A DNA stretch of 62,129 nucleotides from an uncultured Methanosarcinaceae archaeon (GCA_963727895.1 CAVSHT010000018.1:1-62129); one strand, 5' to 3'. Positions 2,783 through 37,163 are shown, counted from the stretch's first letter. Numbers and translations are program-made. The notes: a model not told the origin generated them from the sequence alone.

Positions 2783-3688
2783 TTACCATCCGCGTTCCTG
2801 AAGTGCTTCTTCTTTAGGAATCATATCTGCGCTGATACCTTTCATCCCTGCGCCCACGCCTTTTGAAATTTCTGCGAGTTTTGCAGGATTATCAAAATTG
2901 TTTACGGCTTCAACAACTGCTTTTGCCATCTTTTCAGGGTTTTCAGCTTTGAAAATTCCTGAGCCTACAAAGACCCCATCTGCTCCAAGGCGCATCATAA
3001 GCGCTGCATCTGCAGGAGTTGCAACTCCACCGGCTGCAAAGTTTACCACAGGTAGACGCTGCATTTTAGAGGTTTCGACTACAAGTTCGATCGGAGCTTC
3101 GATTTCCCTTGCAACCATAATCAGTTCTTCTTTAGTCTTTCCGGCAAGAGCACGGATTTCGCCCTGAATCTGCTTCATGTGCTTGACTGCCTGGCTGACA
3201 TCTCCGGTTCCGGCTTCTCCTTTCGTTCGGATCATAGCTGCCCCTTCGTTAATTCTCCGGAGGGCTTCTCCAAGGTTTCTGGCCCCACAGACAAAAGGAA
3301 CGGTAAACTGTGTTTTGTCTATGTGGAAGTAAGGATCAGCAGGGGTCAGAACTTCGGACTCGTCCACCATGTCGACACCAAGAGCTTCTAAAATTTCGGC
3401 TTCAACAAAGTGCCCTATCCTGGCTTTTGCCATTACAGGAATTGTGACAGTATCAATTATCTGCTGGACAATCTCAGGGTCAGCCATTCGGGCAACTCCA
3501 CCAGTTTTTCTGATATCGGCAGGGACAGCATGAAGGGCCATTACAGCAACTGCACCGGCTTCTTCGGCGATGCGGGCCTGCTCTGGAGTTGTAACATCCA
3601 TGATCACACCCCCTTTCTGCATACGTGCAAATCCACGCTTAATAAGTTCTGTACCATGTCTCAATTGTTCAAAGTCCATGAATGTCAT
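2783..3688 (-). CDS. pdxS: Pyridoxal 5'-phosphate synthase lyase subunit
   Basis: [27 protein letters not shown] and [15 protein letters not shown] motifs. Confidence 0.97.
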
Positions 3689-3866: not shown

Positions 3867-5159
3867 TTACACTTTATCAAGAGCCTGCTCTATATCTGAG
3901 ATTATATCTTCGATATCCTCAGTACCTATAGAAAGGCGTATATAATCTGGCTTAACTCCATTTGCTTCCTGTTCGACCGGGGTTAATTGCTGGTGTGTGG
4001 TACTTGCTGGATGGATAATAAGACTTTTGGAATCTCCTATATTCGCAACGTGTGAAAGCAGCTTCACAGAGTTAATAAATTTTTTACCTTCTTCCACTCC
4101 ACCCTTCACACCGAACCCTATTAATCCACCATAACCACCTTTAAAGTACTTGGATGCAAGTTCATGGCTTGGATGATCTGGTAAACCGGGATAATTGACC
4201 CAGGAGACCTTAGGATGATTAGACAGATATTCTGCTACCTTGAGGGCATTTTCCGAGTGCCTTGGCATTCTCAGGTGCAGGGTTTCAAGTCCTTGAAGTA
4301 ACAGGAAAGAGTTAAAAGGTGAAATCGCAGCACCTGTATCTCGAAGATATTGCAGCCTTGCTTTGTAGACAAATGCTATGTTTCCAAGCCCAGGGAAGTC
4401 TGAAAATGTGTCCCAGTATTTCAGGCCGTGATACTCTGGATCAGGATCCGTGAATTCCGAGAACTTACCGTTATTCCATGGGAACTTTCCAGAATCAACT
4501 ATGGAACCGGCAATTGAGTTTCCATGCCCGCCAATGTATTTGGTTGCTGAATGCACAACGATATCAACTCCATGTTCAATAGGTTGGACAAGCCCTACAG
4601 CACTTGTGTTGTCTACGATAACCGGAATCCCGGCTTTATGAGCAATGTCTGCGATTGCCTCAAAATCTGGAACATCAAGCTTCGGGTTACCCAGTGACTC
4701 AATATAAACAGCCCTGGTTTTCTCATTAATGGCTTTTCGGTACGCTTCTACATCAGTTGAATCTACAAATATTACTTTTCTTCCCAGCTTGGGGAAAGTG
4801 TATTTAAAAAGCTCATAAGTTCCGCCGTAAAGATTGTTTCCGGATACTATTTCGTCTCCTACTCTGGTAATAGTTAACAGGGCATAGGTTATTGCTGCTG
4901 AACCCGATGCAACTCCAAGGGCTCCAGTCCCACCTTCAATGGCAGCTATGCGCTTTTCGAACACATCAGTAGTGGGGTTCATTATACGTGTGTAAATATT
5001 ACCAAGATCTTTGAGCCCAAAACGATTGGCTGCCTGATCTGCATCCTTAAAAACATACGATGTTGTCTGATATATTGGTACAACACGTGCTCCTGTTGTT
5101 GAATCTGGAATTTGTCCAGCATGGAGGGCAAGTGTTCCTAATTTATAATTATTAGTCAT
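3867..5159 (-). CDS. metY: O-acetylhomoserine/O-acetylserine sulfhydrylase (copy 1)
   Basis: [27 protein letters not shown] (PLP lysine), [17 protein letters not shown]; overlaps the pscS stop. Confidence 0.93.
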
Positions 5160-6534
5160 TGGAATTCTTCTCCTTGTTTACCTGAAGGTTGTATTTTTCA
5201 GCGATTTCCTGGAATGTATCCACTACATAGCGAACTTTATCCCATGAAAGTCCATATGTATTAAGTTTCCAAACGCGTGTCGCTCCTGCAAATTCTCCGA
5301 CAATACCCTTGCGTGAAAGTTCATCTGAAAGGAAAAAACCTCTGCGTTTATGCTCCTGTGCTATAAGATCAAAATTTTTGATGGTGTCAACTTTGGATAG
5401 AGTATGTTTGCGTGGATATTCTGAGACGACTTTACTGCCTTCAATAGCAAGCAAACCATCAATCAGATAGTTCGACTTTTTCACCTCGTCTTCCCAGTTA
5501 TTTACTCTCTCCTTAACTGTAGGGAATGAAGCCATCATACCCAGCAATGTTGAACCCATCAATGTGCAGCCAAGCATCTCTACTTCCTTTATACCGAACT
5601 TTCGTTTGGTTAAGTCACCCGTCATCTGAGTTGTACGGAATATCTTGGGAGCCCATTCATTGGTTGTTGCCAGTACCCCCGAAGGTGCAGGTGATGCCAT
5701 GCTTTTGTGGCCTGAACCTACGATAAAGTCAGCACCGATGTCTTTTCCATCAACTGGCCTTACTCCTACGGTATAAGCTCCATTATATAGGAAAGGAATA
5801 TCATACTGGTGAGCTACTTTCGCAATGCCCTTCACATCATGCTCGTTTGCATACTGGTAATCAAAGTGGTCGATCATGACAAGTACAGGTAATTTGCCTG
5901 TTTCCTGTTTAACAGCTTCAATTTTCTCAGCAGTAGCATCTTCAGTCACAATATTGTGTTCATTTAAGGGTACTTCTCTAACTATTCCTCCTGCTCCTTC
6001 TACGGCAAGAAATTCTGTGTAATGGGCAAGAGCTGAGACTATTACAGAATTACCTTTATTGACTAAAGAGGATGTAACTGCTTGGAACCCTCTTCTCGCA
6101 CCTGGTACTACTCGAGCAACATCCATGTTAACGAAGCTGGCGAGCTGTTCATGAAATGAAGCTACAGGTGGACTGCTTATTTTGTCCAGCCTGAAAGGTT
6201 TGCGGCAGGCATCACAGGTTGAGTAGCCATCGCCATAAGCTATGAGAGCTTTTCTGGCTTCGGGTGTAAGCCTTCCTGCTGCCTGAATTGGCTGTATATT
6301 GATGTATGTTTCTTCTCTGGCTCGGATATCGATATTATCAGCGATTTTCCTTACTTTCGGAGTTCCGGTATTGTTCTCGATATTATCCAGTATTTTTCTG
6401 ATTTTGTTTACACTTTCTTTAATGGTGTGTTCTTCTTCTGGGTTTGTGACATTTGGAAGTCTTTGTCTAAGAGTCTCCCTAATATCTTCAAGGGCAAAAA
6501 GTGCCTCAAATGTTTTTTGTGTTCTTATATCCAT
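5152..6534 (-). CDS. pscS: Sep-tRNA:Cys-tRNA synthase with ~65-aa N-terminal extension
   Basis: [23 protein letters not shown] (PLP lysine) and LGCT motifs; AGGAG RBS at 6541..6545. Confidence 0.92.
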
Positions 6535-6546
6535 GTATTACTCCTA

Positions 6547-6618
6547 AGCTGAGACCCGGAATCGAACCGGGATATAATGGAGTTGCAATCCATCGCGTAG
6601 CCTTTCCGCCATCTCAGC
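6547..6618 (-). tRNA. tRNA-Cys(GCA), A37 type
   Basis: GCTGAGA/TCTCAGC acceptor stem, U73, anticodon arm ATGGA-TTGCAAC-TCCAT, T arm CCCGG-TTCGATT-CCGGG. Confidence 0.95.
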
Positions 6619-7020: not shown

Positions 7021-7091
7021 AGCCAGAGCCTGGATTTGAACCAGGATAAATGGATCTGCAGTCCACTGCGTAGCCCTTCCGCCACTCTGGC
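7021..7091 (-). tRNA. tRNA-Cys(GCA), G37 type
   Basis: GCCAGAG/CTCTGGC acceptor stem, U73, GTGGA-CTGCAGA-TCCAT, CCTGG-TTCAAAT-CCAGG. Confidence 0.95.
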
Positions 7092-7112: not shown

Positions 7113-7526
7113 CTAACAACACTTCATACTCGTTTTTAATATTTAAACCTGCTTTTTGAGGCAAAATATGTCTTCAAAGCGAACAGAACATGAAATCTCA
7201 CTCAAAAATGGTAACTGAAAAATTATCCATATCCATAGATGAAGAATGAAATTTGCCGGTTTTTGGATAAAAACAGCTATACAACCTTTTTTCTTAAAAA
7301 ATATAATTTTGGGACTATTTTGTGTGCCTATAAAACTTATTTAAGTTTATACGATTCAAAAATATGTTTTTAATGTCCTGGAATCTATAACCTTTCAGAT
7401 CAGAAAAGTATTACATTTACAAGGATTACTAAATTTACAAAACGTATGACATTTATAAAATTTTAGATTTATAGTCAACAATCGTTGATTTGAAACTCCT
7501 GAGTCCTAATAACTCCTAAATCCTAA

Positions 7527-7853
7527 TTATTCATATTTAGATATATCTTTTAAAGCTTCATCAATAAAATATGGAGCTTCTATTGCCTTAATCCCTCTTT
7601 TCCTTAACTCTTCTTGCGGCCTGCTACCAATTCTAGAGCAAAGCAAAGCATCACAATCAGAAATCAAAGCGATTATTCTACTCAAAAGATCGTCTGCATG
7701 TCCTGAATCAGCTGAACCACATAAAGGAGTAGTTTCTCTTACCTCTAAAAACTGTATTTTACCACAATCGACCTCAAATATGAAAAATTTAGATGCTTTT
7801 CCAAAATGCTGGTTGATAACCTTGCCATCACTCGAAACAATTGCGACTTTCAT
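7527..7853 (-). CDS. NifB/NifX-family FeMo-cofactor-binding protein
   Basis: MKVAI...INQHFGKASKFFIFEV...DCDALLCSRIG pattern. Confidence 0.85.
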   Translation of the reverse strand: MKVAIVSSDGKVINQHFGKASKFFIFEVDCGKIQFLEVRETTPLCGSADSGHADDLLSRIIALISDCDALLCSRIGSRPQEELRKRGIKAIEAPYFIDEALKDISKYE

Positions 7854-7943
7854 CGATTTTATCTCCCATTTTACATGAATAAAAAAGAATCAACAACAAT
7901 AGATGTCAACAATAATAGATATTTATGTTTATGAAGAACTCTA

Positions 7944-8014
7944 AGCCAGAGCCTGGATTCGAACCAGAATACATGGGTCTGCAGTCCACTGCGTAGCCCT
8001 TCCGACACCCTGGC
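7944..8014 (-). tRNA. tRNA-Cys(GCA), degenerate duplicate of 7021..7091
   Basis: Same scaffold but U10-C25 and A31-C39 mismatches and extra G-U pairs; possibly non-functional. Confidence 0.8.
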
Positions 8015-8021
8015 ACAAATA

Positions 8022-8035
8022 TTTACAATTGTGAA
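8022..8035. promoter_or_regulatory. Sulfur-box palindrome (1 mismatch)
   Basis: TTTACAATTGTGAA 7 bp upstream of the third tRNA-Cys. Confidence 0.8.
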
Positions 8036-8373
8036 CTAACAACACATTATGTTCATTTCTAATATTTAAGTCTGTTTTTGAGGCAAAATATGTCTTTAGA
8101 GCAAACAGGATATGAAAAAGAGAGCTTCTAAGCTAGAATTTAGAATCGAATTTGAATACCAGCTTTGCTGAAGAGAACGTTTTTCAAGTTTTTCTTAATT
8201 TATATAATGTAGAGTTTCCTTTTCCACAATTTTCCAATATCTACCTAATTAAAAGTGATTATTTATATAATTGTATTATTCAGCATCTTAATTGTGGAAT
8301 ATCTGAAAAATTAAGCCTGTTTTCCGTTTAAATAGGAAAATCCTAGAAACACAAAATTAACTAAGATAAACAA

Positions 8374-8661
8374 TTAGCTAATAACAATCAGCTCAAATGT
8401 CCCATCCAGACATGAGACTGCAAAGTCATGGAAATGCTTCATATTATCTGACATCTCTTCGTAAATTGAGTGAGAAATGTATATTCTCATATGCGGTTTT
8501 TTGTCAGGGTCTTTTTTAAGTTCAAAGTAAAGTTCCTTAAAAACTTCAATTAGAGTTTTCAGGTTAATACGTCTAATTATTCTAATATGGCCTATCCCCT
8601 CCGAATCAATCATAATTCGGTAACTTTTGTTTTGCTTTAGATTTCTCTCATTTAACCCCAT
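8374..8661 (-). CDS. Hypothetical protein (95 aa)
   Basis: ATG start, RBS-like GCGGT, TATA and two sulfur boxes upstream; no family recognised. Confidence 0.7.
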   Translation of the reverse strand: MGLNERNLKQNKSYRIMIDSEGIGHIRIIRRINLKTLIEVFKELYFELKKDPDKKPHMRIYISHSIYEEMSDNMKHFHDFAVSCLDGTFELIVIS

Positions 8662-8704
8662 TATTTCTACCGCAATATATTATTTCAATCTTGCAATTAT
8701 TAAC

Positions 8705-8752
8705 TTTTCAATTGTGAATTTTAGAAATACAAACAGTCTTCACAATTGTGAA
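8705..8752. promoter_or_regulatory. Two sulfur boxes
   Basis: TTTTCAATTGTGAA (8705..8718) and perfect TTCACAATTGTGAA (8739..8752); minus-strand TTTTATAA at 8770..8777. Confidence 0.8.
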
Positions 8753-9156
8753 TAGGGTTATTTCTTAAGTTATAAAAGTGTTTTGTCCATTTACTCAAAT
8801 GAATTACTGAAAAATTTGCAGGCTAAATTGTTTGAAAGAAGAGACTACCCCTCGCAAAAAAAATGAGAAAAGGAGGGGGAAATGCTTCAATGTTCCGCCG
8901 AAAAGCAAGTTTATCGAGTTAAGAGCTGTAAGTTCAAAAACTCCTGCGGAGTAATTTACAACAGGAGTCTGGAATTTACAATAAATTCAAAACTAATTAC
9001 AAAAGTTTTAGATACAAATTTTAGACTTTACAGAAATCCTGTTGTTAAATGAATCTCAATGCCTGTGACTCAAGAACTGATCTGGATTTCAATAATTGAA
9101 TTTGAGATACTTCTGTCGATTTGAAGGGATTTTTCCAAAGTCAAATTTTAAATACC

Positions 9157-10071
9157 TCATGCTTCCGAACTTATTTGCGCTCCTTCTTCAATGATACTGC
9201 TTTTCACTTTTTCTTCATGCCCATGTACTTGTTCACGTTCTCTGAGAAGTATATCTGACCAGCTTTCTGCCCAGGTTTTGAGTTCTTCAGACTCAAGAGG
9301 AGCAGGAACGTATTTTTTATCGTTGTTCAAGATACTCCTTGCAAGCTCTCTATATAACTCAGCCTGCTCAGAATCAGGTGCATGTTCAACTACAGTCTGA
9401 CCCCTTAGCTCACTTCTTGTAACATCCAGTGAACGTGGTACATACCCTACGATTCTGGTTTTTGTCTGCGCTGCAAAGTCATTTGTTATCTCTTTTTGGA
9501 TCGACTGGTTCATCGAGTTTGCGATTATTCCGCTGAAAAGTGCACCACCATTGTTTGCGTATTTTCTGATTCCTTTAAAGAGATTATTTGCTGCATAAAT
9601 TGCCATGAAATCTGAGGATGCTACAGTGTAAACCTGTTCTGCAACACCTTCACGGATAGGAGTTGAAAATCCTCCACATACGACGTCTCCAAGCACGTCA
9701 TAAATTACAACATCAGGCTTAAACTCCTCAAAGACGTTTTTTTGCCTCAGAAGTTCGATTGCAGTAATAATCCCCCTACCTGCACATCCGACTCCAGGTT
9801 CTGGACCTCCTGCTTCCACACAGAGGATCCCATTGAAACCTTCATAGACAACGTCACTGATCTCAATTCTTTTTCTGCTTCTCATAGCATCAAGAACTGA
9901 AGGAATCGATTTTCCTCCCCTCAGGTTATTTGTGGAGTCGCTTTTAGGATCACAGCCGATTTGCATTACTGTAAGGCCCAGGTCCGAAATAGCCGCTGAA
10001 AGATTTGATGAAGTAGTTGATTTTCCAATACCGCCTTTTCCATATATTGCGATGTTTCTTGTTTTTGCCAT
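9157..10071 (-). CDS. Nitrogenase iron protein-like reductase (group IV, MarH-like)
   Basis: [42 protein letters not shown]; '[17 protein letters not shown]' and a C-terminal 'W..SW' resemble MarH more than canonical NifH. ATG at 10071 with GGAG/GGTGA-type RBS. Confidence 0.88.
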
Positions 10072-10400
10072 GTCATCACCATACAGGAAAACAAACAAAT
10101 CTGATTTATAAGCTCACACTTCAGCAATAATTGACATCGAAATTCTGTTTTTCTTAATTTTGCGGCAAAAATCTCCGGGATTTTTAAAATTGTAGATCTG
10201 TATCTTTCAATAGGCTCCACCGCTTAATCGTTCTATTAAACTATTGCCGCAAAAATTCGGATAATGAGAAACTAGGTCCCAATTTTGCTTATTTCCCGAT
10301 TTATATATCCATTAATGTCAATGGAAGAGATGATGCCAAGAGCAAAAAATACTGGAGACAAATTAACTAAGAAAAACAGATCTCTTACGGAGTAATATTA

Positions 10401-11654
10401 ATGTCAGAAAGAGAACTTACTGAAAATGAACTAGTTGAAGAAAGAATTGACCTATCACGGGCTACATGTCCTAACAGAGAACAGAGGGCAAACGGTATAA
10501 ACGTCTGGTATGGAAAAGCCAGCGATCTTGTAAAAGAAGCTCGTTCAGGCTGCTTGAGGCAAAGAGAAAGGAATTTTCAGCAGTCGAGTGGTTGTGTTCT
10601 GAACTTCTATCTTTCAGTAAGGATCGGAACAATCCGTGACGCTGTGGCTATATATCACGCACCTGTTGGCTGCTCGTCTGCAGCACTTGGCTACCGTGAA
10701 CTCTACAGTGAAGTCCCAATAATACATGTAAATACCTCAGGGTTTGCAGGGACCTCATACGATGGCTATGAGTACTTTTTCGATTCTGTAATCGATCAAC
10801 TCCTAGAAAAGACTCCGAAAGAAAAAGGATTGGTAAATGTATTCGGGATAGTTCCCTTCCAGCATATATTCTGGAAGGGAGCAGCAAGGGAAATAAAAAC
10901 ACTACTCGAAAAAATAGGCTTGAAGGCAAATCTGATCGTAGGAGAGTTTGATGCTCTTGAAAACCTAAAAAAAATCCCAGCTGCCGAATATAACATTGTT
11001 CTTTCAAGCTGGATCGGGCATAAAACGGCAGAAAAACTCGAAGAAAAGTTCGAGATTCCTTATATTTCCTTCCCAGGAGTACCGACAGGTCCAAAACAGA
11101 CCTCTGAATTCCTTAGAGTTATAGGAAAAAGACTAGATGTTTCAGCCGATGTCATTGAAGATCTTATTGCCAGAGAGGAAAAGCGTGCTTATAGATTTGC
11201 AGAATACGTTGGCGACATACTTCTGATTACCAGACCGCATCCTTATTTTGCGGTTGTCGCTGACAGTAGTTCAGCTGTGAGCATTACAAAATACCTTGCA
11301 AACGAGATGGGTTATCTGCCTGAAGTTGTTCAGATAACAGATAATCCACCTGAAGAAGCCCGTGAACTGATAAATGAGGAACTAACGACAGGTCTTGAAA
11401 CCCCGGCATGGCCTGAGATTATATACGAAGTGGATGCATATCGGATCCGGGAAAATTTAAAAGATAGAAATTTCCTGTTCCTGCTTGCAAGTTCTCTTGA
11501 AGCTAATATATCAGGTCCAGAATATAACGCTCTGTACGTGACGATTTCATTCCCTTCATATAACCGCGTGATACTCGAACACAATTATGCAGGGTTCAGT
11601 GGAGGGCTTACTCTAGTTGAAGACGTTATGAGTACATATGCAGGGCCTCTGTGA
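10401..11654 (+). CDS. Nitrogenase component-1-like protein; apparent MarD(N-terminal)::MarK(C-terminal) in-frame fusion
   Basis: aa 1-102 alpha-like (REQR..I..W.GKASDL.KE, Cys65, HAPVGC91); aa ~104-417 beta-like (PIIHVNTSGF...YAGFSGGLTLVED). The segment carrying the third P-cluster Cys is missing. Confidence 0.75.
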   Translation: MSERELTENELVEERIDLSRATCPNREQRANGINVWYGKASDLVKEARSGCLRQRERNFQQSSGCVLNFYLSVRIGTIRDAVAIYHAPVGCSSAALGYRELYSEVPIIHVNTSGFAGTSYDGYEYFFDSVIDQLLEKTPKEKGLVNVFGIVPFQHIFWKGAAREIKTLLEKIGLKANLIVGEFDALENLKKIPAAEYNIVLSSWIGHKTAEKLEEKFEIPYISFPGVPTGPKQTSEFLRVIGKRLDVSADVIEDLIAREEKRAYRFAEYVGDILLITRPHPYFAVVADSSSAVSITKYLANEMGYLPEVVQITDNPPEEARELINEELTTGLETPAWPEIIYEVDAYRIRENLKDRNFLFLLASSLEANISGPEYNALYVTISFPSYNRVILEHNYAGFSGGLTLVEDVMSTYAGPL

Positions 11655-11779
11655 GTGGATTTCACTTTTATCCACTCTTTTCATTTTAATTTTGAAGCAA
11701 GAATTTTGAACTCATATGAGAGTTTTAATTATTTTATATTATCAAATAGAAATTCAAAGAAATACCTTTTAATCCATCA

Positions 11780-11918
11780 TTCTCCTGAGGGCTTCTCCAA
11801 GGTATCTGGCCCCGTAGACAAAAAGAACAGTGAACTTATTTAGTCTCTGTGAAAATAGAGGCCAGCAGGAGTCAGAACTCTGACTCATCCACCATGTAAA
11901 TGCCCAAGAGTTCTAAAA
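11780..11918 (-). pseudogene. Decayed internal fragment of pdxS
   Basis: Aligns by eye to 3252..3394 (shared GAGGGCTTCTCCAAGGT, CAGCAGG.GTCAGAACT, TCCACCATGT, TTCTAAAAT). Confidence 0.8.
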
Positions 11919-11995
11919 TCTGTTTTTGAGGCAAAATATGCCTTTTTTAATATTCACTTATTATTATTAATTGAAATCGGCCATAACCTATATAA

Positions 11996-12129: not shown

Positions 12130-13122
12130 ATGGACAAAGAACTTAATGCAAATATTAAGGCATCTCTGCTGAGTATAGGTAGTGCTCAGGTTGATAAATC
12201 CCTCCTTCCTGATCAGAATACCAGCAAGGCTACAGCCGGACCAGGGGCAGGAGGTTCCTCAATCTTTTTAAAGTCCGGAAATCAGAGAGTTAGGCTTACA
12301 ATCAATGATGCTTCTCCTTTGAAAGTAATACAGGAAGATGAACATGTAGTAGTCATTAAAGACGAAAAAGTGATTTCCAGAGGAATACTTGAACATCCAC
12401 TTTGTCATTGTCCGGAACAGGCATATATTACGTTATCTGAAAAATGCATATACGATTGCCAGTTTTGTCCTGTGCCGAAAATGCACGGTGGAATAAAGGA
12501 CAGTACAAAAGTACTCAAGATGATTGAGGAAGCTTATGCAACAGGTGAACTCAAAGCAATTTCTCTTACCAGTGGAGTAGCTGTTTCACCAAAAAAAGAA
12601 GTTGAGAGGGCAGTAGATATAATAAAACAACTTACGCGTGAGTATGATCTCCCAATAGGAGTTTCAGTTTATCCCACAACAGGTTCTTCAGAAGAACTTT
12701 ATTCTGCGGGTGCATGCGAGGTAAAATACAATGTTGAAACGATGGATTCAAACCTTTTCCGCCGATTCTGTCCGGATCTCTCGCTTTATACAGTTCTTGA
12801 TGCTCTCGACAACGCAGTTAATGTTTTCGGCAGAAACAAGGTTTCTTCAAACTTTATAATAGGTCTTGGAGAAAGTGATGAAACCGTTCAAAAGGGTATC
12901 AAGCTACTTACAAGTCGATGTATAATTCCAATTCTCAGACCTATTTCTCCTAGCTCCCTCAGGAAAGATGTGAAGATAACCAGGCCAGATGCTTCACGGC
13001 TTTTAAAACTTGGAGGCATGCTAAAAGATACGCTTGACCATGAGTCACTTTGTGTCGATAAATCCAAAACAATGTGCCTATTCTGCACTGGCTGTGACTT
13101 AACACTTCATAAAGATATTTGA
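12130..13122 (+). CDS. Radical SAM protein (biotin-synthase-related, function unknown)
   Basis: CIYDCQFC motif; YNVET; IIGLGE; C-terminal CxxCxxCD. Confidence 0.85.
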   Translation: MDKELNANIKASLLSIGSAQVDKSLLPDQNTSKATAGPGAGGSSIFLKSGNQRVRLTINDASPLKVIQEDEHVVVIKDEKVISRGILEHPLCHCPEQAYITLSEKCIYDCQFCPVPKMHGGIKDSTKVLKMIEEAYATGELKAISLTSGVAVSPKKEVERAVDIIKQLTREYDLPIGVSVYPTTGSSEELYSAGACEVKYNVETMDSNLFRRFCPDLSLYTVLDALDNAVNVFGRNKVSSNFIIGLGESDETVQKGIKLLTSRCIIPILRPISPSSLRKDVKITRPDASRLLKLGGMLKDTLDHESLCVDKSKTMCLFCTGCDLTLHKDI

Positions 13123-13349
13123 GTGAAACTATTTAATATCAACAAAACTTTTTGAGAAGAATATTTGTTTCTCCATTTTTATCTTGTAAGAATTCAGGCA
13201 AATTATTATTGAAGGAAAAATTATAGATTTAATGTAAGGCATACCCCAAATGTATATTATATTTTCTCAAAAAGGAAATGCTTTTTGACTATTTTGGCTT
13301 TAAAGGTTAATTTGTTTTATTTTACGGAAATGTTTATAAATATTAAATC

Positions 13350-13363
13350 ATCACAATTGTGTA
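13350..13363. promoter_or_regulatory. Sulfur box (2 mismatches) between TATA and start codon
   Basis: ATCACAATTGTGTA; TTTATAAA at 13333..13340; ATG at 13365. Confidence 0.7.
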
Positions 13364-13364
13364 C

Positions 13365-14183
13365 ATGGCAGAACAATTCACTCTTACCATTCAATCTGGA
13401 AAAAACAGATTAGGAAAAAATGAAGGATTTGAAAGCATAGAAATAAGATCAAGAGATACTCTCTCAATTGTCGGCCCAACTGGTTCAGGAAAAACAGCCT
13501 TAATTAATGATATTGAAACCCTCGCACAGGGAGATACTATAACAGGCCGAAGGATTCTTATCAATGGTGAAGAACCTCCTGAATCTTTTATACGGGAGCC
13601 AGCCTTCAAACCAATTGCCATGATAACCCAAAACACACGTTGTCTGGCAGATCTCTCAGTTGAAGAATTCTTGCTCATGCATATAAAAGCAAGAAAACCA
13701 GGCAGGGAAGATTTGGTTGAAGAGACAATGAATCTTGCAAATACTTTTACAGGTGAAGCGATCAGCCTTAAAAGCAGGATGAGTGGCTTGTCGGGAGGGC
13801 AGACTAGATCTCTTATGATTGCAGATGCTCTTGTAATTGGTGACACCCCAATACTTTTGCTTGATGAAATTGAAAATGCAGGCATTTTTAAAGACCGCGT
13901 TATCCAGTCTCTTCAAGGAGGAAATAAAGCAGTTATCCTTGTCACCCATGATCCTTATCTTGCGCTTACAGCAGACAGGCGTATCGTGATGAAAAATGGA
14001 GGAGTTACGTCCGTAATCAAATCTGCCGGGGAAGAGCAGCATCTTATCGAAGACCTTTCTTTAATAGAAGACAAACTCCATCAAATCCGGGAAAAACTCA
14101 GACAGGGAGCTGCTTTTTCATCAACTTCTTCAAAGATTTCAATGATTTCATCAGGCCAAAAAATGCCGTTGAATAGGGTGTGA
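13365..14183 (+). CDS. ABC-type ATPase without adjacent permease
   Basis: GPTGSGKT, LSGGQ, LLLDE, VTHD. Confidence 0.88.
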   Translation: MAEQFTLTIQSGKNRLGKNEGFESIEIRSRDTLSIVGPTGSGKTALINDIETLAQGDTITGRRILINGEEPPESFIREPAFKPIAMITQNTRCLADLSVEEFLLMHIKARKPGREDLVEETMNLANTFTGEAISLKSRMSGLSGGQTRSLMIADALVIGDTPILLLDEIENAGIFKDRVIQSLQGGNKAVILVTHDPYLALTADRRIVMKNGGVTSVIKSAGEEQHLIEDLSLIEDKLHQIREKLRQGAAFSSTSSKISMISSGQKMPLNRV

Positions 14184-14189
14184 GTCAAA

Positions 14190-14894
14190 ATGAAGCTTCT
14201 AATTATTGCCGGCCCTCCAAGTGGAGGAAAAACAGCTGTGATCCGCCAGGTTATAAAAAATCTCCCTGAAGGTTCACTTCCTGCCTTTCTGAAAATCGAT
14301 GTTGTACACGCCACAGAAGATCAGGAACTTGCAGAAGAGTTTGACATTCCTGTCAAAAAGATATATTCAGGAGACGTATGTCCTGACCACATGGGAATTC
14401 TGGTGCTTGAAGAAGCATTACAGTGGGCTGAGAGCATTTCAAGGAATATCTTGATAATTGAAAGCGCAGGACTCTGTCTAAGATGTACCCCTTACACGAC
14501 TTACTCTCTTGGAATTGCGGTTATCAGTGCGATCTCAGGAACTAATTCCCCACTCAAAACAGCACCTTTACTTGCTCTTGCAGACGTGGCGGTTGTTACC
14601 AAGACCGACCTTGTATCACAGGCAGAAAAAGAGGTTTTCAGGGAAAGTATCCGTAAAGTGGTCCCGAATATTGACATTGTAGAGACAAACGCAATTCAAG
14701 GAACAGGTTTAAGATACCTGATGAGGCGGATCGCCGATCATCCAGATATAGGATTTGACCCAATTGTGTTAAGAGGTGCCCCTCCGCTTGGTGTATGTAC
14801 TGTATGTATTGGGAAAAAAGAAATTGGATGGAAAAACCACTTTGGAGTCATTCGGCCGCTGGATATGCCAGAACCCTTATACAGAGGCGACTGA
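14190..14894 (+). CDS. HypB/UreG-like GTPase (metallochaperone)
   Basis: GPPSGGKT, CPDH, ESAGLCLRC, TKTD. Confidence 0.85.
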   Translation: MKLLIIAGPPSGGKTAVIRQVIKNLPEGSLPAFLKIDVVHATEDQELAEEFDIPVKKIYSGDVCPDHMGILVLEEALQWAESISRNILIIESAGLCLRCTPYTTYSLGIAVISAISGTNSPLKTAPLLALADVAVVTKTDLVSQAEKEVFRESIRKVVPNIDIVETNAIQGTGLRYLMRRIADHPDIGFDPIVLRGAPPLGVCTVCIGKKEIGWKNHFGVIRPLDMPEPLYRGD

Positions 14895-14896
14895 TA

Positions 14897-15565
14897 ATGA
14901 ATAAATGGAGCCCCCCTAGTAAAAACTGCGGAGCTTGTGGCTCTCAGACATGTTCGGACTTTGTTTCCAGGCTTGAAACCGGATTAACAGAGTTGGAAAT
15001 GTGTCCGTTCTATAGTATAGAAAACACCGTAGAAAAGACAGTGAATCCGGAGAAAATTGCAAGCCGGAAATATCCAGAAATCCAGGCAAAAAACATCACT
15101 TACTCCGGTGTATATGTGGCTGGAAAAGAATACGACTTCGTCCTCCTTCCATTTCCGGATGAACCATCAGCCAGAAAGTTCATAGTACCTTTCAGAGCAG
15201 ATCTTGTGGAAAAATGGAATATTAAAAAGGGAGATCTTGTGACTGGTCGCCCAGCAGGTCCAGGTTGTCCAGTATGTCACGCTTTGAGAGTTCTGAGTGC
15301 AAATCCAGTTACAGGTGTAATTGAATGCCATACTGTAGGTCCAATGGCCGCAAGAAAGGAAGATGTCCATGATGTTCAGGCTTATCACGTCCATGCTTTC
15401 GAAGGGATTGCCAGTACTATAAAAAAGCCTCCTATATTCGGAACCCGCCAGTATTTCCTGCCAGGCAATTGCATGATAGGACTTGCACATACGGCTCTTG
15501 TGAATATGTGTTTCCAAAAGCCTTCCGGACTTCATGTCAGGCTTGAGGATATCAGGATATTGTAA
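14897..15565 (+). CDS. (Fe-S)-binding protein
   Basis: N-terminal NCGACGSQTC...CP motif; GRPAGPGCPV; ATG at 14897 follows the upstream stop. Confidence 0.8.
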   Translation: MNKWSPPSKNCGACGSQTCSDFVSRLETGLTELEMCPFYSIENTVEKTVNPEKIASRKYPEIQAKNITYSGVYVAGKEYDFVLLPFPDEPSARKFIVPFRADLVEKWNIKKGDLVTGRPAGPGCPVCHALRVLSANPVTGVIECHTVGPMAARKEDVHDVQAYHVHAFEGIASTIKKPPIFGTRQYFLPGNCMIGLAHTALVNMCFQKPSGLHVRLEDIRIL

Positions 15566-15611
15566 CGACTATTGAGTTGGATATATAACGACTATTAGAA
15601 GTCGAGATACT

Positions 15612-16856
15612 ATGAAAACTATTGAAGAGATAAATAAGAAAATCGCTTCCAAAGAAGCGATAATCTTGACTGCTTCTGAACTTAAGTCCATGGTACGTGA
15701 TGGAAAAGATGTGACTGTTGATGATGTGGATGTGGTCACTACCGGGACATTTGGCGTGATGTCAGGCACAATGGCAGTTATGATGGTGCCAGTAGCCGAA
15801 AAGTGCAGTTTTGAAAGGGCAGACGCCATCTGGCTAAATGGAGTACCTGCGCAACCAGGTCCCTGTCCTAACGAAAGACTTGGGGTTGTAGACCTCGTGA
15901 TAAATGGAACTGCTCATGCCGATGACCAATATGGTGGAGGGCACCTTTTCCGGGACCTTGTAAAAGGCAAAACCATTGATGTGCTTGTGGAAGCTCATGG
16001 CAGGCGTTATGAAAATCAGGTTATGCTTGACGAGATTGAATTTGCCAGGATTATTACAACAAGACTTGCATTTAAAAATTACCACGCACTGATTAACCCT
16101 ACTTCCTCTACAATTAGCACTATATTTTCTGTAACAGGCTTAACAGGTCCTTTTACAGAAACAACAGTATCAGGATGCGGTGAAATAAATCCGCTGCAAA
16201 ATGATACTTCTCATAGATCAATAGGAGTGGGCACAAGGGTTCTATTAAATGGCGCACCTGGTTATATCATGGGAAAAGGAACTAGAACAAGTCCTGATAA
16301 GCCGAATGTATCTGCTTATGCAGACATGAAAAAGATGGACCCAACCCTGATGGGTGGAATGAAGACCTCACATGGGCCTGAATGTCTGACATCACTTACA
16401 GTTCCTATCCCTGTCCTTGATGAAGAGATTCTTTCGGGATTAAAAATCCTGGACCAGAATGTTTCATTATCCGTATCAGACATAAACGGACGCACTGAAC
16501 ACGCAAAAGTTAATTACGGAAATGTATGGGGAGGTACTGATAAGGTTATCCGTGTTGAAAAAGAAAAGTGCTTGCATCATCCAGACTGTGCCGCAATGCG
16601 CACATGTCCTATGGAAGCAATTTCAAATAATTGTGTTATCAACAGAGATCTCTGTATTAATTGTGGAACCTGTACACTTCAATGTTCTGAAGGTGTATTC
16701 CGTGCAAAGCTTGGGTCGATAAAGCTGGCTGAAGGAGTTTTACCCATATCTTTGAGGCAGTCAGACAGGGCAAGGGCAGAAAGACTCTGTACTATGCTTA
16801 AAAACCGGATTTTGAAGCAGAAGTTTGTACCTACAAAAATGTTGGAGCCTCTCTAA
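15612..16856 (+). CDS. DUF39/homocysteine-biosynthesis family protein with ferredoxin domain (methanogenesis marker 16-like)
   Basis: KTIEEINKKI, DVVTTGTFGVMSG, GPCPNE, SGCGEINPLQND; C-terminal CxxCxxC ferredoxin. Confidence 0.85.
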   Translation: MKTIEEINKKIASKEAIILTASELKSMVRDGKDVTVDDVDVVTTGTFGVMSGTMAVMMVPVAEKCSFERADAIWLNGVPAQPGPCPNERLGVVDLVINGTAHADDQYGGGHLFRDLVKGKTIDVLVEAHGRRYENQVMLDEIEFARIITTRLAFKNYHALINPTSSTISTIFSVTGLTGPFTETTVSGCGEINPLQNDTSHRSIGVGTRVLLNGAPGYIMGKGTRTSPDKPNVSAYADMKKMDPTLMGGMKTSHGPECLTSLTVPIPVLDEEILSGLKILDQNVSLSVSDINGRTEHAKVNYGNVWGGTDKVIRVEKEKCLHHPDCAAMRTCPMEAISNNCVINRDLCINCGTCTLQCSEGVFRAKLGSIKLAEGVLPISLRQSDRARAERLCTMLKNRILKQKFVPTKMLEPL

Positions 16857-17220: not shown

Positions 17221-18507
17221 ATGGTAAAAGAAAAAATCGAATCTCGCATTCATACCCGTCAGGGAAACAAACGCACCCAAAAAGATTATGCTGGACAATG
17301 TGATTGCTCAGGTCAGTCTTCTTCCGAGTCTGAAACTCAATCTGATGTTGTTATAGTTCGGTATGGCGAACTTGCTCTTAAAAGTACAGGAGTTCGAAAT
17401 TGGTATGAGAAAATCCTCATAAAGAATATATCATCAATGCTTGACTCAAGAGAAATTCCATATTCGCAGATCCGTCGGGAATGGGGCAGGATATTTATTG
17501 AGACAAAGGATGAACGTGCAGCTGAAGCCGCTTCTGATGTTTTTGGGATTGTCTCAACGTCTCCTGCGTTGACAGCAGAGTCAACCCTTGAGAACGCTGC
17601 AAGTGTGTGTGCTACCCTTGCCAGGGACCTTATTTTAGAAAGCGAATCATTTGCTATCAGGGCCAGAAGAAGTGGAAACCACATATTTTCTTCAACGGAC
17701 ATCGGCAGAACGTGTGGAGATGCTGTATGGGAGGCCCTGGAAAAAGAAGGAAAACATCCAAAAGTAAACCTGACTTCCCCTGATAAGGAAATATATGTTG
17801 AAATGAGGCAGAGTCTGGCTTATATCTATCTTAAAACATTTAAAGGAGTAGGAGGCCTTCCCCTCGGCACTCAGGGAAGTATGATAGTTTTAATGTCTGG
17901 TGGGCTTGACTCGCCGGTTGCAGCCTGGCTTATGATGAAACGGGGAGTTATGATTATTCCTGTCTATTGCAATAATTCCCCTTATGCAGAAGATGCAGCA
18001 AGAGAGAGGGCTTTTGACTGTATCCGACAACTTCAGAAATGGGCTCCAGGACATCAATTTACAACTTATGAGATTCCTCATGGACCAAATCTTAAGACTT
18101 TTATCGATATATGTAACCGGAAAAATACCTGTCTTCTCTGCAAACGCACTATGTACAGAGAAGCTTATGAAATTATGAAAAAAGAAGGCGCAACTGGAAT
18201 TATTACCGGGTCTTCTCTGGGACAGGTAGCTTCACAGACTGCTGCGAATATGTATGCTGAAATCTATCAGCTTGCTATGCCCATATATCACCCTTTGATT
18301 GCTTTAGACAAAATTGAAATAATGGATATAGCCCGCAAAATTGGAACCTATGATATATCAAATAGAGCAGCAGGAGGCTGCACTGCTGTTCCTGAGAAAC
18401 CTGAAATAGGAGCCAAATATGATCTTATTGTGCTTGAGGAACGAAAAATGGATATAGAAACTATGGTTTCAAATGCTATGAAAGAGGCAAAAATCCATAA
18501 ACTTTGA
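17221..18507 (+). CDS. thiI: tRNA 4-thiouridine synthase
   Basis: VRYGELALKS, THUMP domain, GGLPLGTQG, SGGLDSPVA, CLLCKR, SLGQVASQT. Confidence 0.95.
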   Translation: MVKEKIESRIHTRQGNKRTQKDYAGQCDCSGQSSSESETQSDVVIVRYGELALKSTGVRNWYEKILIKNISSMLDSREIPYSQIRREWGRIFIETKDERAAEAASDVFGIVSTSPALTAESTLENAASVCATLARDLILESESFAIRARRSGNHIFSSTDIGRTCGDAVWEALEKEGKHPKVNLTSPDKEIYVEMRQSLAYIYLKTFKGVGGLPLGTQGSMIVLMSGGLDSPVAAWLMMKRGVMIIPVYCNNSPYAEDAARERAFDCIRQLQKWAPGHQFTTYEIPHGPNLKTFIDICNRKNTCLLCKRTMYREAYEIMKKEGATGIITGSSLGQVASQTAANMYAEIYQLAMPIYHPLIALDKIEIMDIARKIGTYDISNRAAGGCTAVPEKPEIGAKYDLIVLEERKMDIETMVSNAMKEAKIHKL

Positions 18508-20569: not shown

Positions 20570-22430
20570 ATGAGACTTTATTGGATTGACACCTTAAAAG
20601 GAATTGGAATTATGCTAGTGGTGCTTGCACACTATAGTTTACAGATAGCATTTGACACTTACATATTTTCATTTCATATGCCGCTCTTTTTTTTCATTTC
20701 AGAATTTCTATTTGATTTTGGTAAATACACAGGATCAGCTTCAACCTTTGTGAAAGGAAGATTCAAGTCTCTTATCGTACCTTATTTCTGTTTTGCAGTA
20801 ATAACCTGTGTTTTTTGCTTTTTGCTGGATGAATTATATACGCCAGAAATCACAAGTATTAAGTTTTTTGAAAACAGCATAATTCATGGAATTTCTCATA
20901 TTCTTGTTGCTTTCGGTCCTGCTATTTCTTATAATCCACCTCTGTGGTTCCTGACCTGTCTTTTTGTAACTGAACTTCTCTTTTATGGACTGGCAAAGAA
21001 GTACTATGGAGAACCAAAAAAACTTGTATTCTGGCTTATTATAGCCGGAGTAATCGGGTACCTTTACCCAGTTTACGTGTCTTTTAGGAGACTCTGGAAT
21101 GTAGATGTAGCTCTGGCTGCAATAGTTTTTTATGGAGCTGGAAATCTATTCAGACAGGTTACAGAATCGGAATCAGAATCAGAAACAGAATCAAGTTTCA
21201 GCTTGAAATTGAATTCTGGATTTATAGAGAAGTTTTCTAGCGTTGAAAAATATCTACCTGTTATTGCTGTTCTTTTGAGTCTGCTATATCTAGGATACCT
21301 TCTGAAGTTTCCAACAGCTGACAAAGTTAACATGAATGTTCTGAAATATGGAGCTTTCTTTTCGTTTTATCTGTTGGCTTTCGCAGGAATATTTACCTTT
21401 GTCTACCTTTCCAAGAGAATTGTGAGCTCAAAAGTTTGAGTATTATGGGAGAAATAGTTTGATAATACTTGCATTTCATTTTCCTCTAAAAGATGTCTTG
21501 ATAAAGCTTGCAATAATCATTTTAGGCATTGTTAATTAAACATAGTTAACTCTTTATTTCTGTATTTCATCAATAGAATAACCGAGTACTTTAGCATTTC
21601 AAGACTTTTTGTATAACACTTTGTCTTTCTTCTCAATCTTGCTAGAAAATGCCTCAATATGCTGTTATATCCCTCAACTGTAAATGTTTCTGCTTTTGAT
21701 TGAGTATGGATCTTTTTTGGAATAAACTCTGCATATGCTCTCCAGTGATCTGTCATTACTTCTCCAATCTCTTTTTTCTTCACTTTTTCCCAGAGTAGTT
21801 TTCCAGTTTCTGTTCCTCTGCTACCAAAAGAGCAATTGATGAACTTTTTCCCAACTCTATCAACAGCAATCCAGATCCAGCAATATTTTTTTTGTTACCG
21901 ATGTAAGTGTGCATTTCATCCATTTCAACAATAGATATCTCATTTTCACTTTTTAGGTCCTCTAACTCCTGACCAAATTTCTTTATCCATCTTTGGACAG
22001 AAACATGACTCACCCCTAAAAATCGTCCTATTGAACGAAAGCCCAATCCTTCAAGATAGAGTTGTAAAGCCTGTCTTTTTACAAAAGCGGAAAAAGCAGT
22101 TGATTTTAGCTCTACTGTATAGTTATAGCCACAATCAGAGCATTTGTACCGTTGACGCCCGCCAACTATACCGTTCTTTTTGTGACTGGAACTATTGCAT
22201 CTGGGGCAGTTCATGAAGAAATATACTTTCTAATAGTATATAACTATGTTTAAGTATCAAAGCCTCATTTTTTAGGTGTTGACATTGAATATATTCATTA
22301 CAATGCTGTGTTTGCGCTGGGCTTAACTGTTCTGAGCCTTATTCTCTTAGTGCCTGTTATCTATATTATTAACAATTATTTTCCCTTTTTACTAGGTAAA
22401 AAAGGATTATACAAGATTTTGAGAGTATAA
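20570..22430 (+). pseudogene. Acyltransferase family 3 membrane protein, frameshifted and IS-interrupted
   Basis: WIDTLKGIGI, FHMPLFFFIS, LWFL motifs; YGRNSL in a shifted frame; C-terminus resumes after 22264. Confidence 0.8.
21525..22264 (-). mobile_element. IS1-family insertion sequence (740 bp)
   Basis: InsA-like CxxC/HTH ORF and InsB-like ORF joined by an A-run slippery site; ends GGCATTGTTA.../GGCTTTGATA...; flanks TCATTTTA and TCATTTTT. Confidence 0.92.
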
Positions 22431-29216: not shown

Positions 29217-29956
29217 GGCATTGTTAATTAAACATAGTTAACTCTTTATTTCTGTATTTCATCAATAGAATAACCGAGTACTTTAGCATTTCAAGACTTT
29301 TTGTATAACACTTTGTCTTTCTTCTCAATCTTGCTAGAAAATGCCTCAATATGCTGTTATATCCCTCAACTGTAAATGTTTCTGCTTTTGATTGAGTATG
29401 ACTCTTTTCTGGAAGAAACTCTGCATATGCTCTCCAGTGATCTGTCATTACTTCTCCAATCTCTTTTTTCTTCACTTTTTCCCAGAGTAGTTTTCCAGTT
29501 TCTGTTCCTCTGCTACCAAAAGAGCAGTTGATGAACTTTTTCCCAACTCTATCAACAGCAATCCAGATCCAGCAATATTTTTTTTGTTACCGATGTAAGT
29601 GTGCATTTCATCCATTTCAACAATAGATATCTCATTTTCACTTTTTAGGTCCTCTAACTCCTGACCAAATTTCTTTATCCATCTTTGGACAGAAACATGA
29701 CTCACCCCTAAAAATCGTCCTATTGAACGAAAGCCCAATCCTTCAAGATAGAGTTGTAAAGCCTGTCTTTTTACAAAAGCGGAAAAAGCAGTTGATTTTA
29801 GCTCTACTGTATAGTTATAGCCACAATCAGAGCATTTGTACCGTTGACGCCCGCCAACTATACCGTTCTTTTTGTGACTGGAACTATTGCATCTGGGGCA
29901 GTTCATGAAGAAATATACTTTCTAATAGTATATAACTATGTTTAAGTATCAAAGCC
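29217..29956 (-). mobile_element. IS1-family insertion sequence (740 bp)
   Basis: Near-identical to 21525..22264; perfect 8-bp target duplication AAAAATCG. Confidence 0.95.
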
Positions 29957-36000: not shown

Positions 36001-36125
36001 AAAGGTATGCTTTTGATCCCATGAGACAACACTGGATCTTTTCATTCATATAAATAGTCAATCCAGGCTGCTGAAAGAAGATGATGATTCTTACGAATTT
36101 CTTTCTGTTGTTCAAAAGAATATTC
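33001..36125 (-). pseudogene. HD-like domain + NB-ARC NTPase + TPR protein, disrupted
   Basis: 42-aa TPR repeats (GPEHPDVA..LNNLA); upstream open frame with FTGRE and GLGGIGKT; frameshift ~35525; LLRFADELD HD-like motif; in-frame TGA ~36043; 5' end cut by IS. Confidence 0.8.
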
Positions 36126-36865
36126 GGCATTGTTACTTAACTAGATCTAGTTCTTTATTTCTGTATTTCATCAATAGAATAACCGAGTACTTTAGCATTT
36201 CAAGACTTTTTGTATAACACTTTGTCTTTCTTCTCAATCTTGCTAGAAAATGCCTCAATATGCTGTTATATCCCTCAACTGTAAATGTTTCTGCTTTTGA
36301 TTGAGTATGACTCTTTTCAGGAAGAAACTCTGCATATGCCCTCCAGTGATCTGTCATCACTTCTCCAATCTCTTTTTTCTTCACTTTTTCCCAGAGTAGT
36401 TTTCCAGTTTCCGTTCCTCTGCTACCAAAAGAGCAGTTGATGAACTTTTTCCCAACTCTATCAACAGCAATCCAGATCCAGCAATATTTTTTTTGTTACC
36501 GATGTAAGTGTGCATCTCATCCATTTCAACAATAGATATCTCATTTTCGCTTTTTAGGTCCTCTCACTCTTGATCAAATTTCTTGATCCGTCTTTGGACA
36601 GAAACATGACTCACCCCTAAAAACCGCCCTATTGAACGAAAACCCAATCCTTCAAGATAGAGTTGTAAAGCCTGTTTTTTGACAGAAGCAGAGATAGCAG
36701 TTGATTTTAACTCTACTATATAGTTATAGCCACAATCAGAGCATTTGTACCGTTGACGCCCGCCAACTATACCATTCTTTTTGTGACTGGAACTATTACA
36801 TCTGGGGCAGTTCATGCAGAAATATACTTTCTAATAGTATATAACTATATTTAAGTATCAATACC
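36126..36865 (-). mobile_element. IS1-family insertion sequence, premature stop in InsA-like ORF
   Basis: Same ends and length as the other copies; flanks GAATATTC and TTATTTTT do not match. Confidence 0.9.
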
Positions 36866-37163
36866 TTATTTTTATATATAAATAATTCTTGAAATCTCAA
36901 TGCTGTATATCTTCTCATTTCTCTATAGAGATGGCCCTTGATGAAAAATCAATCTTTTTTGGAGATGAAATATTTTACCAGAGTGGTGTGATAATCGGGG
37001 ATTTCTTTAATATCAATGACTATCAAAAAATGTATAATTGCATTTTTCTATTTTTCTTTAATTTTAGCTCTTATTTCTCAAATTTTGTTATTCATTTTGT
37101 CATTTAAGATTTACTATAAAGTACTCATAGAAATATAGAACATGTTCTCACATATTAAAAAAT

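Follow-up and report, generated by a model that had tools for sequence, protein, structure and literature searches.

CfbCD (Group IV-B) is the F430 reductive cyclase of methanogens, in which CfbD is homomeric. Another nitrogen fixation-like (NFL) system of Group IV, the methylthio-alkane reductase (MAR) MarBHDK of Rhodospirillum rubrum, belongs to Group IV-C and is defined by six cysteines for a P-type cluster (mar1), three each in D and K, together with MarD Cys270 and His428, which hold the L-like cluster mar2. Its activity consists in setting free methane, ethane or ethylene, along with methanethiol, from dimethyl sulfide, ethyl methyl sulfide or methylthioethanol. The available parts of PMC13753814 report MAR activity in R. 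rubrum for 15 of 20 IV-C systems and none at a physiological level for Groups IV-A, IV-D, IV-E and IV-F, the activity level used there being 10 µmol/L/OD. IsrHDK, the isethionate reductase of Rhodobacter capsulatus (Group IV-F), is a further Group IV NFL system for anaerobic sulfur acquisition from organosulfur compounds (passages of PMC11423573), and Group IV NFL genes are generally associated with sulfur genes, as stated in passages of a Chemical Reviews article (PMC13474568). Here, a related module is described on a stretch of 62,129 nt from an uncultured Methanosarcinaceae archaeon (GCA_963727895.1 CAVSHT010000018.1:1-62129), which is referred to in its whole length as the window. This locus is very probably the decayed remnant of a three-gene Group IV NFL module, in which the gene of the Fe protein, NflH, is intact and the D and K genes have been fused by a deletion.

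Pfam gathering scores and curated NCBIfam cut-offs, applied to the open reading frames (ORFs) of the window, recovered all three genes of the original prediction. These are a NifX/NafY-family (NflX-like) gene at 7527..7853 on the minus strand (PF02579, 81.7 bits against a gathering score of 26.3), the NifH-like ORF that encodes NflH at 9157..10098 on the minus strand (PF00142, 339.9 bits), and a component-1 ORF of 417 aa at 10401..11654 on the plus strand (PF00148, 162.1 bits), which is transcribed divergently from the NifH-like gene. The NflH ORF reaches back to a TTG at 10098, and its likely start is the ATG at 10071, ahead of the P-loop (gene 9157..10071).

The component-1 ORF is a deletion chimera of the genes for the D (alpha-like) and K (beta-like) subunits. 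Its PF00148 match covers only residues 104-412, equivalent to profile positions 106-397 of 399, and the nearest of the 120 database relatives listed, proteins of 449 aa, span just 79% of the ORF; in a BLASTP comparison with one of these from a Methanosarcina sp. (P0004), ORF residues 90-417 match residues 113-449 with 83% identity. In blastn, the window DNA aligns as two blocks in all 14 Methanosarcina-type loci compared. The first block (10240-10717) corresponds in each of them to the upstream region and the first ~308 nt of the D gene, and the second (10709-11654) to K nucleotides 405-1350, through the stop. The D remnant occupies 10401..10708 (+) and consists of codons 1-102 plus two bases, while the K remnant at 10709..11654 (+) begins with the third base of codon 135, extends through the stop codon and continues the reading frame of the D remnant; the translation of the ORF reads D residues 1-102, a hybrid Ser codon and K residues 136-449 (ORF residues 104-417). 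The D remnant is the same as residues 1-102 of D in the closest relative (locus L029) save near the start, and tblastn gives 94% identity over residues 1-107 of this D and 92% identity to residues 113-449 of its K. The junction between 10708 and 10709 (10702..10715, +) was placed by a three-way DNA alignment and by the ends of the blastn blocks. The gap against L029, L022 and L023 measures exactly 1653 bp (551 codons) and is in frame, and an imperfect GAACTCT microhomology lies 4 nt upstream of the junction on both parental sides. Furthermore, the join connects non-homologous positions: D residue 102 is equivalent to about K residue 60, yet it is spliced to K residue 136, and ~75 residues of domain I are absent even from a hybrid fold.

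In the intact relatives, D keeps Cys65, Cys91 and Cys159 as P-cluster ligands and Cys275 as cofactor ligand, and the P-cluster residues Cys24, Cys49 and Cys114 are invariant in the K alignment. Of the eight cluster-ligand cysteines, the chimera retains D Cys65 and Cys91 alone, the other six being gone; lost are one of the three P-cluster cysteines of D, its cofactor cysteine, the whole C-terminal cofactor pocket and all three P-cluster cysteines of K. With the ligand cysteines and the cofactor pocket deleted, the chimera cannot bind either metal cluster, and the catalytic component is dead. A tblastn search with intact D and K detected no second copy of either above 33% identity elsewhere in the genome, which is 84% complete (19 contigs), and a spare D/K copy in its missing part is unlikely. 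The NflH gene, on the other side of the divergent pair, has a ratio of nonsynonymous to synonymous substitution rates (dN/dS) of 0.06-0.08 against its orthologues, and a truncated-type NifB is encoded on contig C9 (360.7 bits, cut-off 343.65). The minimal mar set (marB or nifB, marH, marD and marK) is therefore incomplete here, with H intact, NifB elsewhere, and D and K fused.

It is improbable in the extreme that the in-frame fusion is a working new protein, such as a single-chain scaffold partner for NflH. Although the frame is open over 417 codons, its dN/dS is low and H is intact, a deletion stays in frame by chance in one case out of three, and a recent deletion alone would give low pairwise dN/dS. 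The non-homologous join, with its gap in domain I and its missing ligands, argues against a functional product, and no other record of the fused form was found, the near-identical proteins among the 120 listed relatives being 449-aa K subunits.

The deletion could also have arisen during assembly, in which case the organism would carry an intact H-D-K set, and several observations count against a genuine fusion. None of the four public sequencing runs compared with the window bridges the junction; in all four, contigs that resemble the window at 95-99% part from it precisely at 10708 or 10709 and run on into intact D or K. The best public run shares at most 0.56 of the sampled words with the window and the RNA runs at most 0.13. 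For H and for both remnants, dN/dS (0.00-0.08) is the same as between intact orthologues and shows no relaxation, which means that the deletion either happened very recently or is an error of assembly. In addition, the assembly is only 84% complete and holds frame breaks in other nitrogenase clusters. Beside an intact nifHDKEN cluster on contig C11, it contains further nitrogenase-family clusters on C3 (204-213 kb), C4 (135-140 kb), C7 and C13, in which H, D or K is split between frames or carries stops, and these are either pseudogenes or assembly errors.

An assembly artefact is nonetheless unlikely. The homology between D and K at the junction is only ~7 nt long and imperfect, which is too short for an assembler to collapse, and the surroundings have undergone changes that an assembler would not create. 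Just downstream of the chimera lies a pdxS relic of 141 nt (11779..11919, minus strand), with 81% identity over 144 nt to the pdxS gene of the window (3252-3394) and 73-80% to pdxS in three related loci (L023, L028 and L075), and this relic marks a further rearrangement of the locus. Furthermore, the block of PdxS, MetY, SepCysS and tRNA genes that follows K in relatives precedes H here, and the methyltransferase found behind K in relatives is missing from the genome at E ≤ 1e-10. Independent breaks in the orthologue of the module are also seen elsewhere in the genus, in the three genomes G082, G103 and G073. Finally, the genome is crowded with a repeat of ~750 bp, which suggests real instability. 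Five copies of it lie in the window (21508-22274, 29217-29956, 36120-36873, 44709-45448 and 53893-54631), and it occurs on nearly every contig of the genome with 90-99% identity, in very many copies among the matches listed; the repeat may have caused the fragmentation of the assembly and many of the broken genes.

The decayed module can be placed by its NflH and by the intact D and K of its relatives, which together identify it as a Group IV NFL module, and neither as Nif/Vnf/Anf nor as CfbC/D. In PDB searches, NflH matches MarH (9fmg_D) with 406 bits, compared to 291 for the best NifH chain, and a hand count of the alignment match line gives ~64% identity. Similarly, the D subunit of L029 matches MarD (9fmg_A) with 262 bits, the next match reaching 108, and the K of a relative matches MarK (9d9u_C) with 273 bits, the next reaching 97; 9FMG and 9D9U are R. 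rubrum MarH-MarDK and MarDK, respectively (figure 29 legend, in the part of PMC13474568 available). The predicted likeness to MarH and MarD rather than to Nif/Vnf/Anf or CfbC/D is thus right as far as the nearest solved relatives are concerned, and only the N-terminus of the component-1 ORF is MarD-like because the ORF is a D/K chimera. All curated cut-offs for Nif, Vnf, Anf, NifEN, Bch and Cfb are missed by the module proteins. NflH scores 390.1 bits with the nifH model (cut-off 394.35) and 355.6 with CfbC (NF033200, cut-off 402), D and K score 37-161 bits with the Nif, Vnf and Anf models, whose curated cut-offs are 427-874 (nifD, 132 against 653.55; nifK, 73.7 against 427.3), and D scores 54.2 with CfbD (TIGR03282, cut-off 268.4). 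The module proteins match no Mar-specific NCBIfam model either. The Fe-protein type of R. rubrum MarH is Group II in the consulted portion of PMC13753814, and the N-terminus of NflH resembles, by eye, the Group II entries in the portion of its Table S1 at hand, H having been compared by PDB scores.

The position of the D subunit was resolved further by phylogeny. A homologue search with the D of L029 among 1.84 billion representatives gave 1671 matches at E ≤ 0.001 and 109 at E ≤ 1e-30, and trees were built from full-length representatives with FastTree (122 sequences) and with IQ-TREE under LG+G4 (51 sequences, 487 columns; the bootstrap was not fully settled). In the IQ-TREE analysis, 40 sequences form a Group IV clade (support 91/95) with an unresolved backbone, and Nif, NifE and CfbD lie outside it; the phylogenetic check called for by the original prediction has therefore shown that D does not branch with canonical Nif, NifE or CfbD. 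The D subunits of the window's relatives form a clade with 100/100 support, which is joined by P0123 (97/90), P0122 (100/99) and P0124 (99/95). The Mar anchor, a representative (P0133) that matches R. rubrum MarD (9fmg_A) over its full length with 616 bits, falls in another 100/100 clade of ten sequences together with IV-A-like and IV-E-like sequences, and the relatives of the window stay outside. Forcing the two together costs 135 log-likelihood units and is rejected by the approximately unbiased (AU) test (p = 1.3e-39), for a group that was named after inspection of the tree. By sequence, the intact relatives are thus placed as a Group IV lineage of their own, mostly of methanogens, and not as Mar orthologues. 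FastTree puts this lineage next to an IV-F-like clade, whereas in IQ-TREE the IV-F-like clade (P0131 and others) is separate and the backbone between them is not resolved. Four candidates for the Mar cluster, P0130 (197 bits), P0125 (270), P0145 (204) and P0147 (146), turned out in PDB searches not to be Mar.

The group labels were obtained by matching N-terminal sequences from the part of Table S1 of PMC13753814 at hand, by eye and not by computation, and this reading of the labels A, D, E and F is a point against the placement. On this basis, the IV-C entries (Rhodomicrobium, Selenomonas and Sporomusa sp. KB1) have N-termini of the Mar-anchor type, the IV-A entries look like P0142 and the IV-E entry like P0150 and P0156, all three of these representatives being in the clade of the anchor. 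The IV-F entry, a single N-terminus, resembles P0131, which has named relatives in Geobacter and Geotalea, and whose homologues carry Firmicutes and Geobacter-type names and none from alphaproteobacteria. The IV-D entry (Treponema saccharophilum) matched no representative in the tree, and its gene, which is located on a plasmid, shares 29.6% identity with the archaeal D; by tblastn, D homologues on plasmids occur only in Chlorohelix (46.5%), Treponema saccharophilum (29.6%), Nostoc and Clostridium. None of the group entries available from Table S1 resembles the lineage of the window by eye, and a term search of the supplements of PMC13753814, whose Newick tree was accessible in part, returned no archaeal entries.

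The ligand columns of D also bear on the relation to Mar. In the PDB alignment, Cys275 of the relatives aligns with MarD Cys270, and the surrounding motif occurs in 68 of the 72 D sequences taken from the loci. The column of the Mar anchor residue His428 holds Pro434 in the lineage of the window, directly after Cys433, according to the L-INS-i alignment alone. A [TS]CPFQ motif is found in 69 of the 72 D sequences, and an invariant His450 lies within an insertion of the D of this lineage. The positions of Cys275 and of the His428 column are both deleted in the window.

Taken together, it is very unlikely that the module is of the Mar type. Such a reading would draw on Mar as the solved system closest to H, D and K, on a recurrent neighbour, MetY, which can take up methanethiol, and on the availability of a NifX-like gene and of NifB. 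Against this, the local D and K are destroyed, the D of the relatives is excluded from the Mar-anchor clade, the IV-C N-termini in the accessible part of Table S1 of PMC13753814 are of the anchor type and unlike the lineage, and proline stands in the His428 column. Furthermore, MAR activity is seen only in Group IV-C in the available text of PMC13753814, so that cleavage of dimethyl sulfide (DMS), ethyl methyl sulfide or methylthioethanol is not inferable here, and the ATP-binding cassette (ABC) importer that adjoins the module in 6 of 77 loci is a better fit to a non-volatile substrate. Membership in the Mar family (Group IV-C) is not supported by the tree or by the His428 column.

The intact relatives were compared in 77 loci, of which 69 are archaeal (31 in Methanobacteriaceae, 13 in Methanosarcinaceae, 8 in Methanospirillaceae, and others) and 8 bacterial (Sporomusa aerivorans, Geobacteraceae, Myxococcales/Polyangiaceae and Bacillota). 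Gene context was counted within the fetched flanks, with MetY homologues defined by at least 50% identity, and since related genomes are not independent, the figures are counts and not tests. A MetY homologue lies near the module in 15 of the 77 loci, or in 13 of the 35 whose flanks reach 6 kb or more to either side of K, and occurs in at least six families in varied positions and orientations, being adjacent in Geobacteraceae. Of the 77 loci, 5 have SepCysS nearby, 6 have a NitT/TauT-type binding protein along with its permease and ATPase, and 48 contain an H gene in the flank. A NifX-like gene stands beside the module in 16 of the 77, with 12 cases in Methanobacteriaceae and none among the Methanosarcina-type loci, and the NifX-like gene of the window is an uncertain partner of the NFL module. 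Because Group IV genes are associated with sulfur genes in general, this context supports a role in sulfur metabolism and no particular substrate.

Within the genus, 21 of 58 other species genomes match the D of L029 at E ≤ 1e-60. Fifteen of these contain full-length, stop-free orthologues with 89-100% identity, one orthologue is cut by a contig end, three are broken, one genome has only a type with 74% identity and one only paralogues with 35-37%. A search with K gave no matches at E ≤ 1e-60 in a sample of 60 genomes of the family. The proposal that intact homologous loci could be sought in related genomes has thus been borne out, and their link to sulfur genes recurs. Eight genomes of the genus (G067, G076, G087, G088, G101, G102, G108 and G112) also hold one to three further D-like genes of ~490 aa that are 35-39% identical to the D of the module, and some species therefore possess several kinds of Group IV-type system.

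A group of five genes separates H from D in some intact loci (positions 1937-6175 of L024 from Methanosarcina hadiensis; also L067 and L055), encoding an AbrB/MazE-like protein, a CdhD-like protein, a ferredoxin, an HdrD-like protein with CCG domain and a 311-aa protein without family. This insert could be a set for electron supply to the module. The AbrB-like, CdhD-like, ferredoxin, 311-aa, methyltransferase, substrate-binding protein and permease genes of the relatives have no match in the genome studied here at E ≤ 1e-10.

In the intact H-D-K system, electrons would pass from the ATP-driven Fe protein to a P-type cluster at the D/K interface and then to a NifB-derived cluster in D, as in nitrogenase and MAR, a route suggested by the conservation of the ligands. 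The enzyme may then release usable sulfur reductively from an organosulfur compound, which in some lineages would be imported by the NitT/TauT-type ABC transporter, and the sulfur product would be passed on to the O-acetylhomoserine sulfhydrylase MetY. Sulfur scavenging is the likely role of the intact relatives, and the substrate need not be a methylthio-alkane. What speaks on the other side is that this function is deduced from gene context and from homology to MAR, and that the groups other than IV-C gave no MAR activity in R. rubrum in the results available from PMC13753814. The original prediction held that this lineage has or had a nitrogenase-like system for scavenging organosulfur compounds; the past tense is supported by the 1653-bp deletion that fuses D and K, and the link to sulfur by the context, but the cleavage of Mar-type substrates is not. 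As a tentative proposal, which has somewhat less than even chances in our estimate, the intact relatives would constitute a new class of nitrogenase-like enzymes that reduce C-S bonds, mainly in archaea. In this class, the cysteine of [TS]CPFQ or the invariant His450 would replace the histidine by which Mar holds its NifB-derived cluster, and the enzyme would feed sulfur from an imported organosulfur compound to MetY in methanogens of habitats poor in sulfide; it would have been lost repeatedly, as the four broken copies would indicate.

The remaining genes of the locus are consistent with the sulfur-gene neighbourhood that had been predicted, including metY, and five of them score above curated NCBIfam cut-offs. 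PdxS lies at 2783..3688, MetY at 3867..5159 on the minus strand (TIGR01326, 655.8 bits, cut-off 495.1), the Sep-tRNA:Cys-tRNA synthase SepCysS at 5152..6534 on the minus strand (NF006810, 632.1 bits, cut-off 301), methanogenesis marker 16 (Mmp16, HcyBio family) at 15612..16856 on the plus strand and ThiI at 17221..18507. Directly downstream of SepCysS are three tRNA-Cys(GCA) genes on the minus strand (6547-6618, 7021-7091 and 7944-8014), the NifX-like gene being located between copies 2 and 3. With 37 bits, copy 3 scores lower than the other two (~60). A 30-nt motif stands upstream of copies 2 and 3 (7146-7175 and 8068-8097) and recurs at 11916-11945 beside the pdxS relic. Downstream of NflH, an ORF of 95 aa (8374..8661, minus strand) is conserved in relatives and has no known family, with no match in Pfam, NCBIfam or ESM Atlas; by tblastn, its homologues adjoin H with 81-90% identity in L022, L024 and L027, and are found with 49-55% identity in four Methanomicrobiales-type loci.

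Further copies of some of these genes exist. A second MetY paralogue is encoded in the window at 48256-49503 on the minus strand, with 66% identity to the first, and a second pdxS copy on contig C5 (G000:C5:337487-338419) shows 99% protein and 94% DNA identity. After the remnant, a run of five genes on the plus strand (12130-16856) encodes a radical SAM (S-adenosylmethionine) protein, an ABC-type ATPase, a HypB/CobW-like GTPase, a protein with an iron-sulfur (FeS) domain and methanogenesis marker 16. The DNA of the ATPase-GTPase pair (13294-14994) recurs with 85% identity at C4:142353-144047, and this copy on C4 adjoins an IS1 transposase and a frame-broken cluster of NifEN-like plus NifH-like genes (L103, G000:C4:133000-149000).

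These results point to a widespread NFL lineage of methanogens that is situated among sulfur-assimilation genes and is dispensable enough to have been lost repeatedly within one genus. They also hold a lesson for annotation: the 'nitrogenase component 1' of this locus is a fused pseudogene, and a best match to Mar is no ground for assigning cleavage of DMS or methylthioethanol. Apart from CfbCD, the passages available from the 2026 Chemical Reviews article and a 2026 mBio paper name no archaeal nitrogenase-like enzyme with an assigned function, and no description of an archaeal Mar-like lineage was found in those passages or in those of a Nature Catalysis paper (PMC12552129) and of Dos Santos 2012 (PMC3464626), some supplements of which may hold archaeal sequences with a bearing on the group label. 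The family merits experiments, while the copy in the window mainly documents its loss.

Compared with the known systems, the module shares with Nif/Vnf/Anf the fold families PF00142 and PF00148 and the positions of the P-cluster ligands, but the Nif proteins encoded in this genome reach no more than 33% identity to the D and K of the module. CfbCD is likewise a nitrogenase-like system of methanogens, which the genome also encodes, on contig C13; the module differs in having a D/K pair, and NflH is 46% identical to the C13 copy. NfaBHDK (IV-A) and Groups IV-D and IV-E have the set of H, D and K and the P-cluster cysteines in common with the module, whereas the Mar anchor groups with the IV-A-like and IV-E-like sequences (100/100), to the exclusion of the lineage of the window, the IV-D reference having been left out of the tree. 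With IsrHDK, some relatives of the module have in common that they adjoin a NitT/TauT-type ABC transporter, as suits sulfonates, although the IV-F-like clade, labelled by eye, stands apart from the lineage in IQ-TREE. MarBHDK differs from the module in several respects: the module locus has no marB, its D forms a separate lineage with Pro434 in place of His428, and this lineage, known from sequence alone, is mostly archaeal (69 of 77 loci), with D and K fused and dead in the window. At the same time, MarBHDK and the module share the two-component architecture of H and D/K, the six P-cluster cysteines and the cofactor cysteine that are kept in the intact relatives (MarD Cys270 corresponding to Cys275), a sulfur-gene context with an O-acetylhomoserine sulfhydrylase, and a NifB that is available in the genome.

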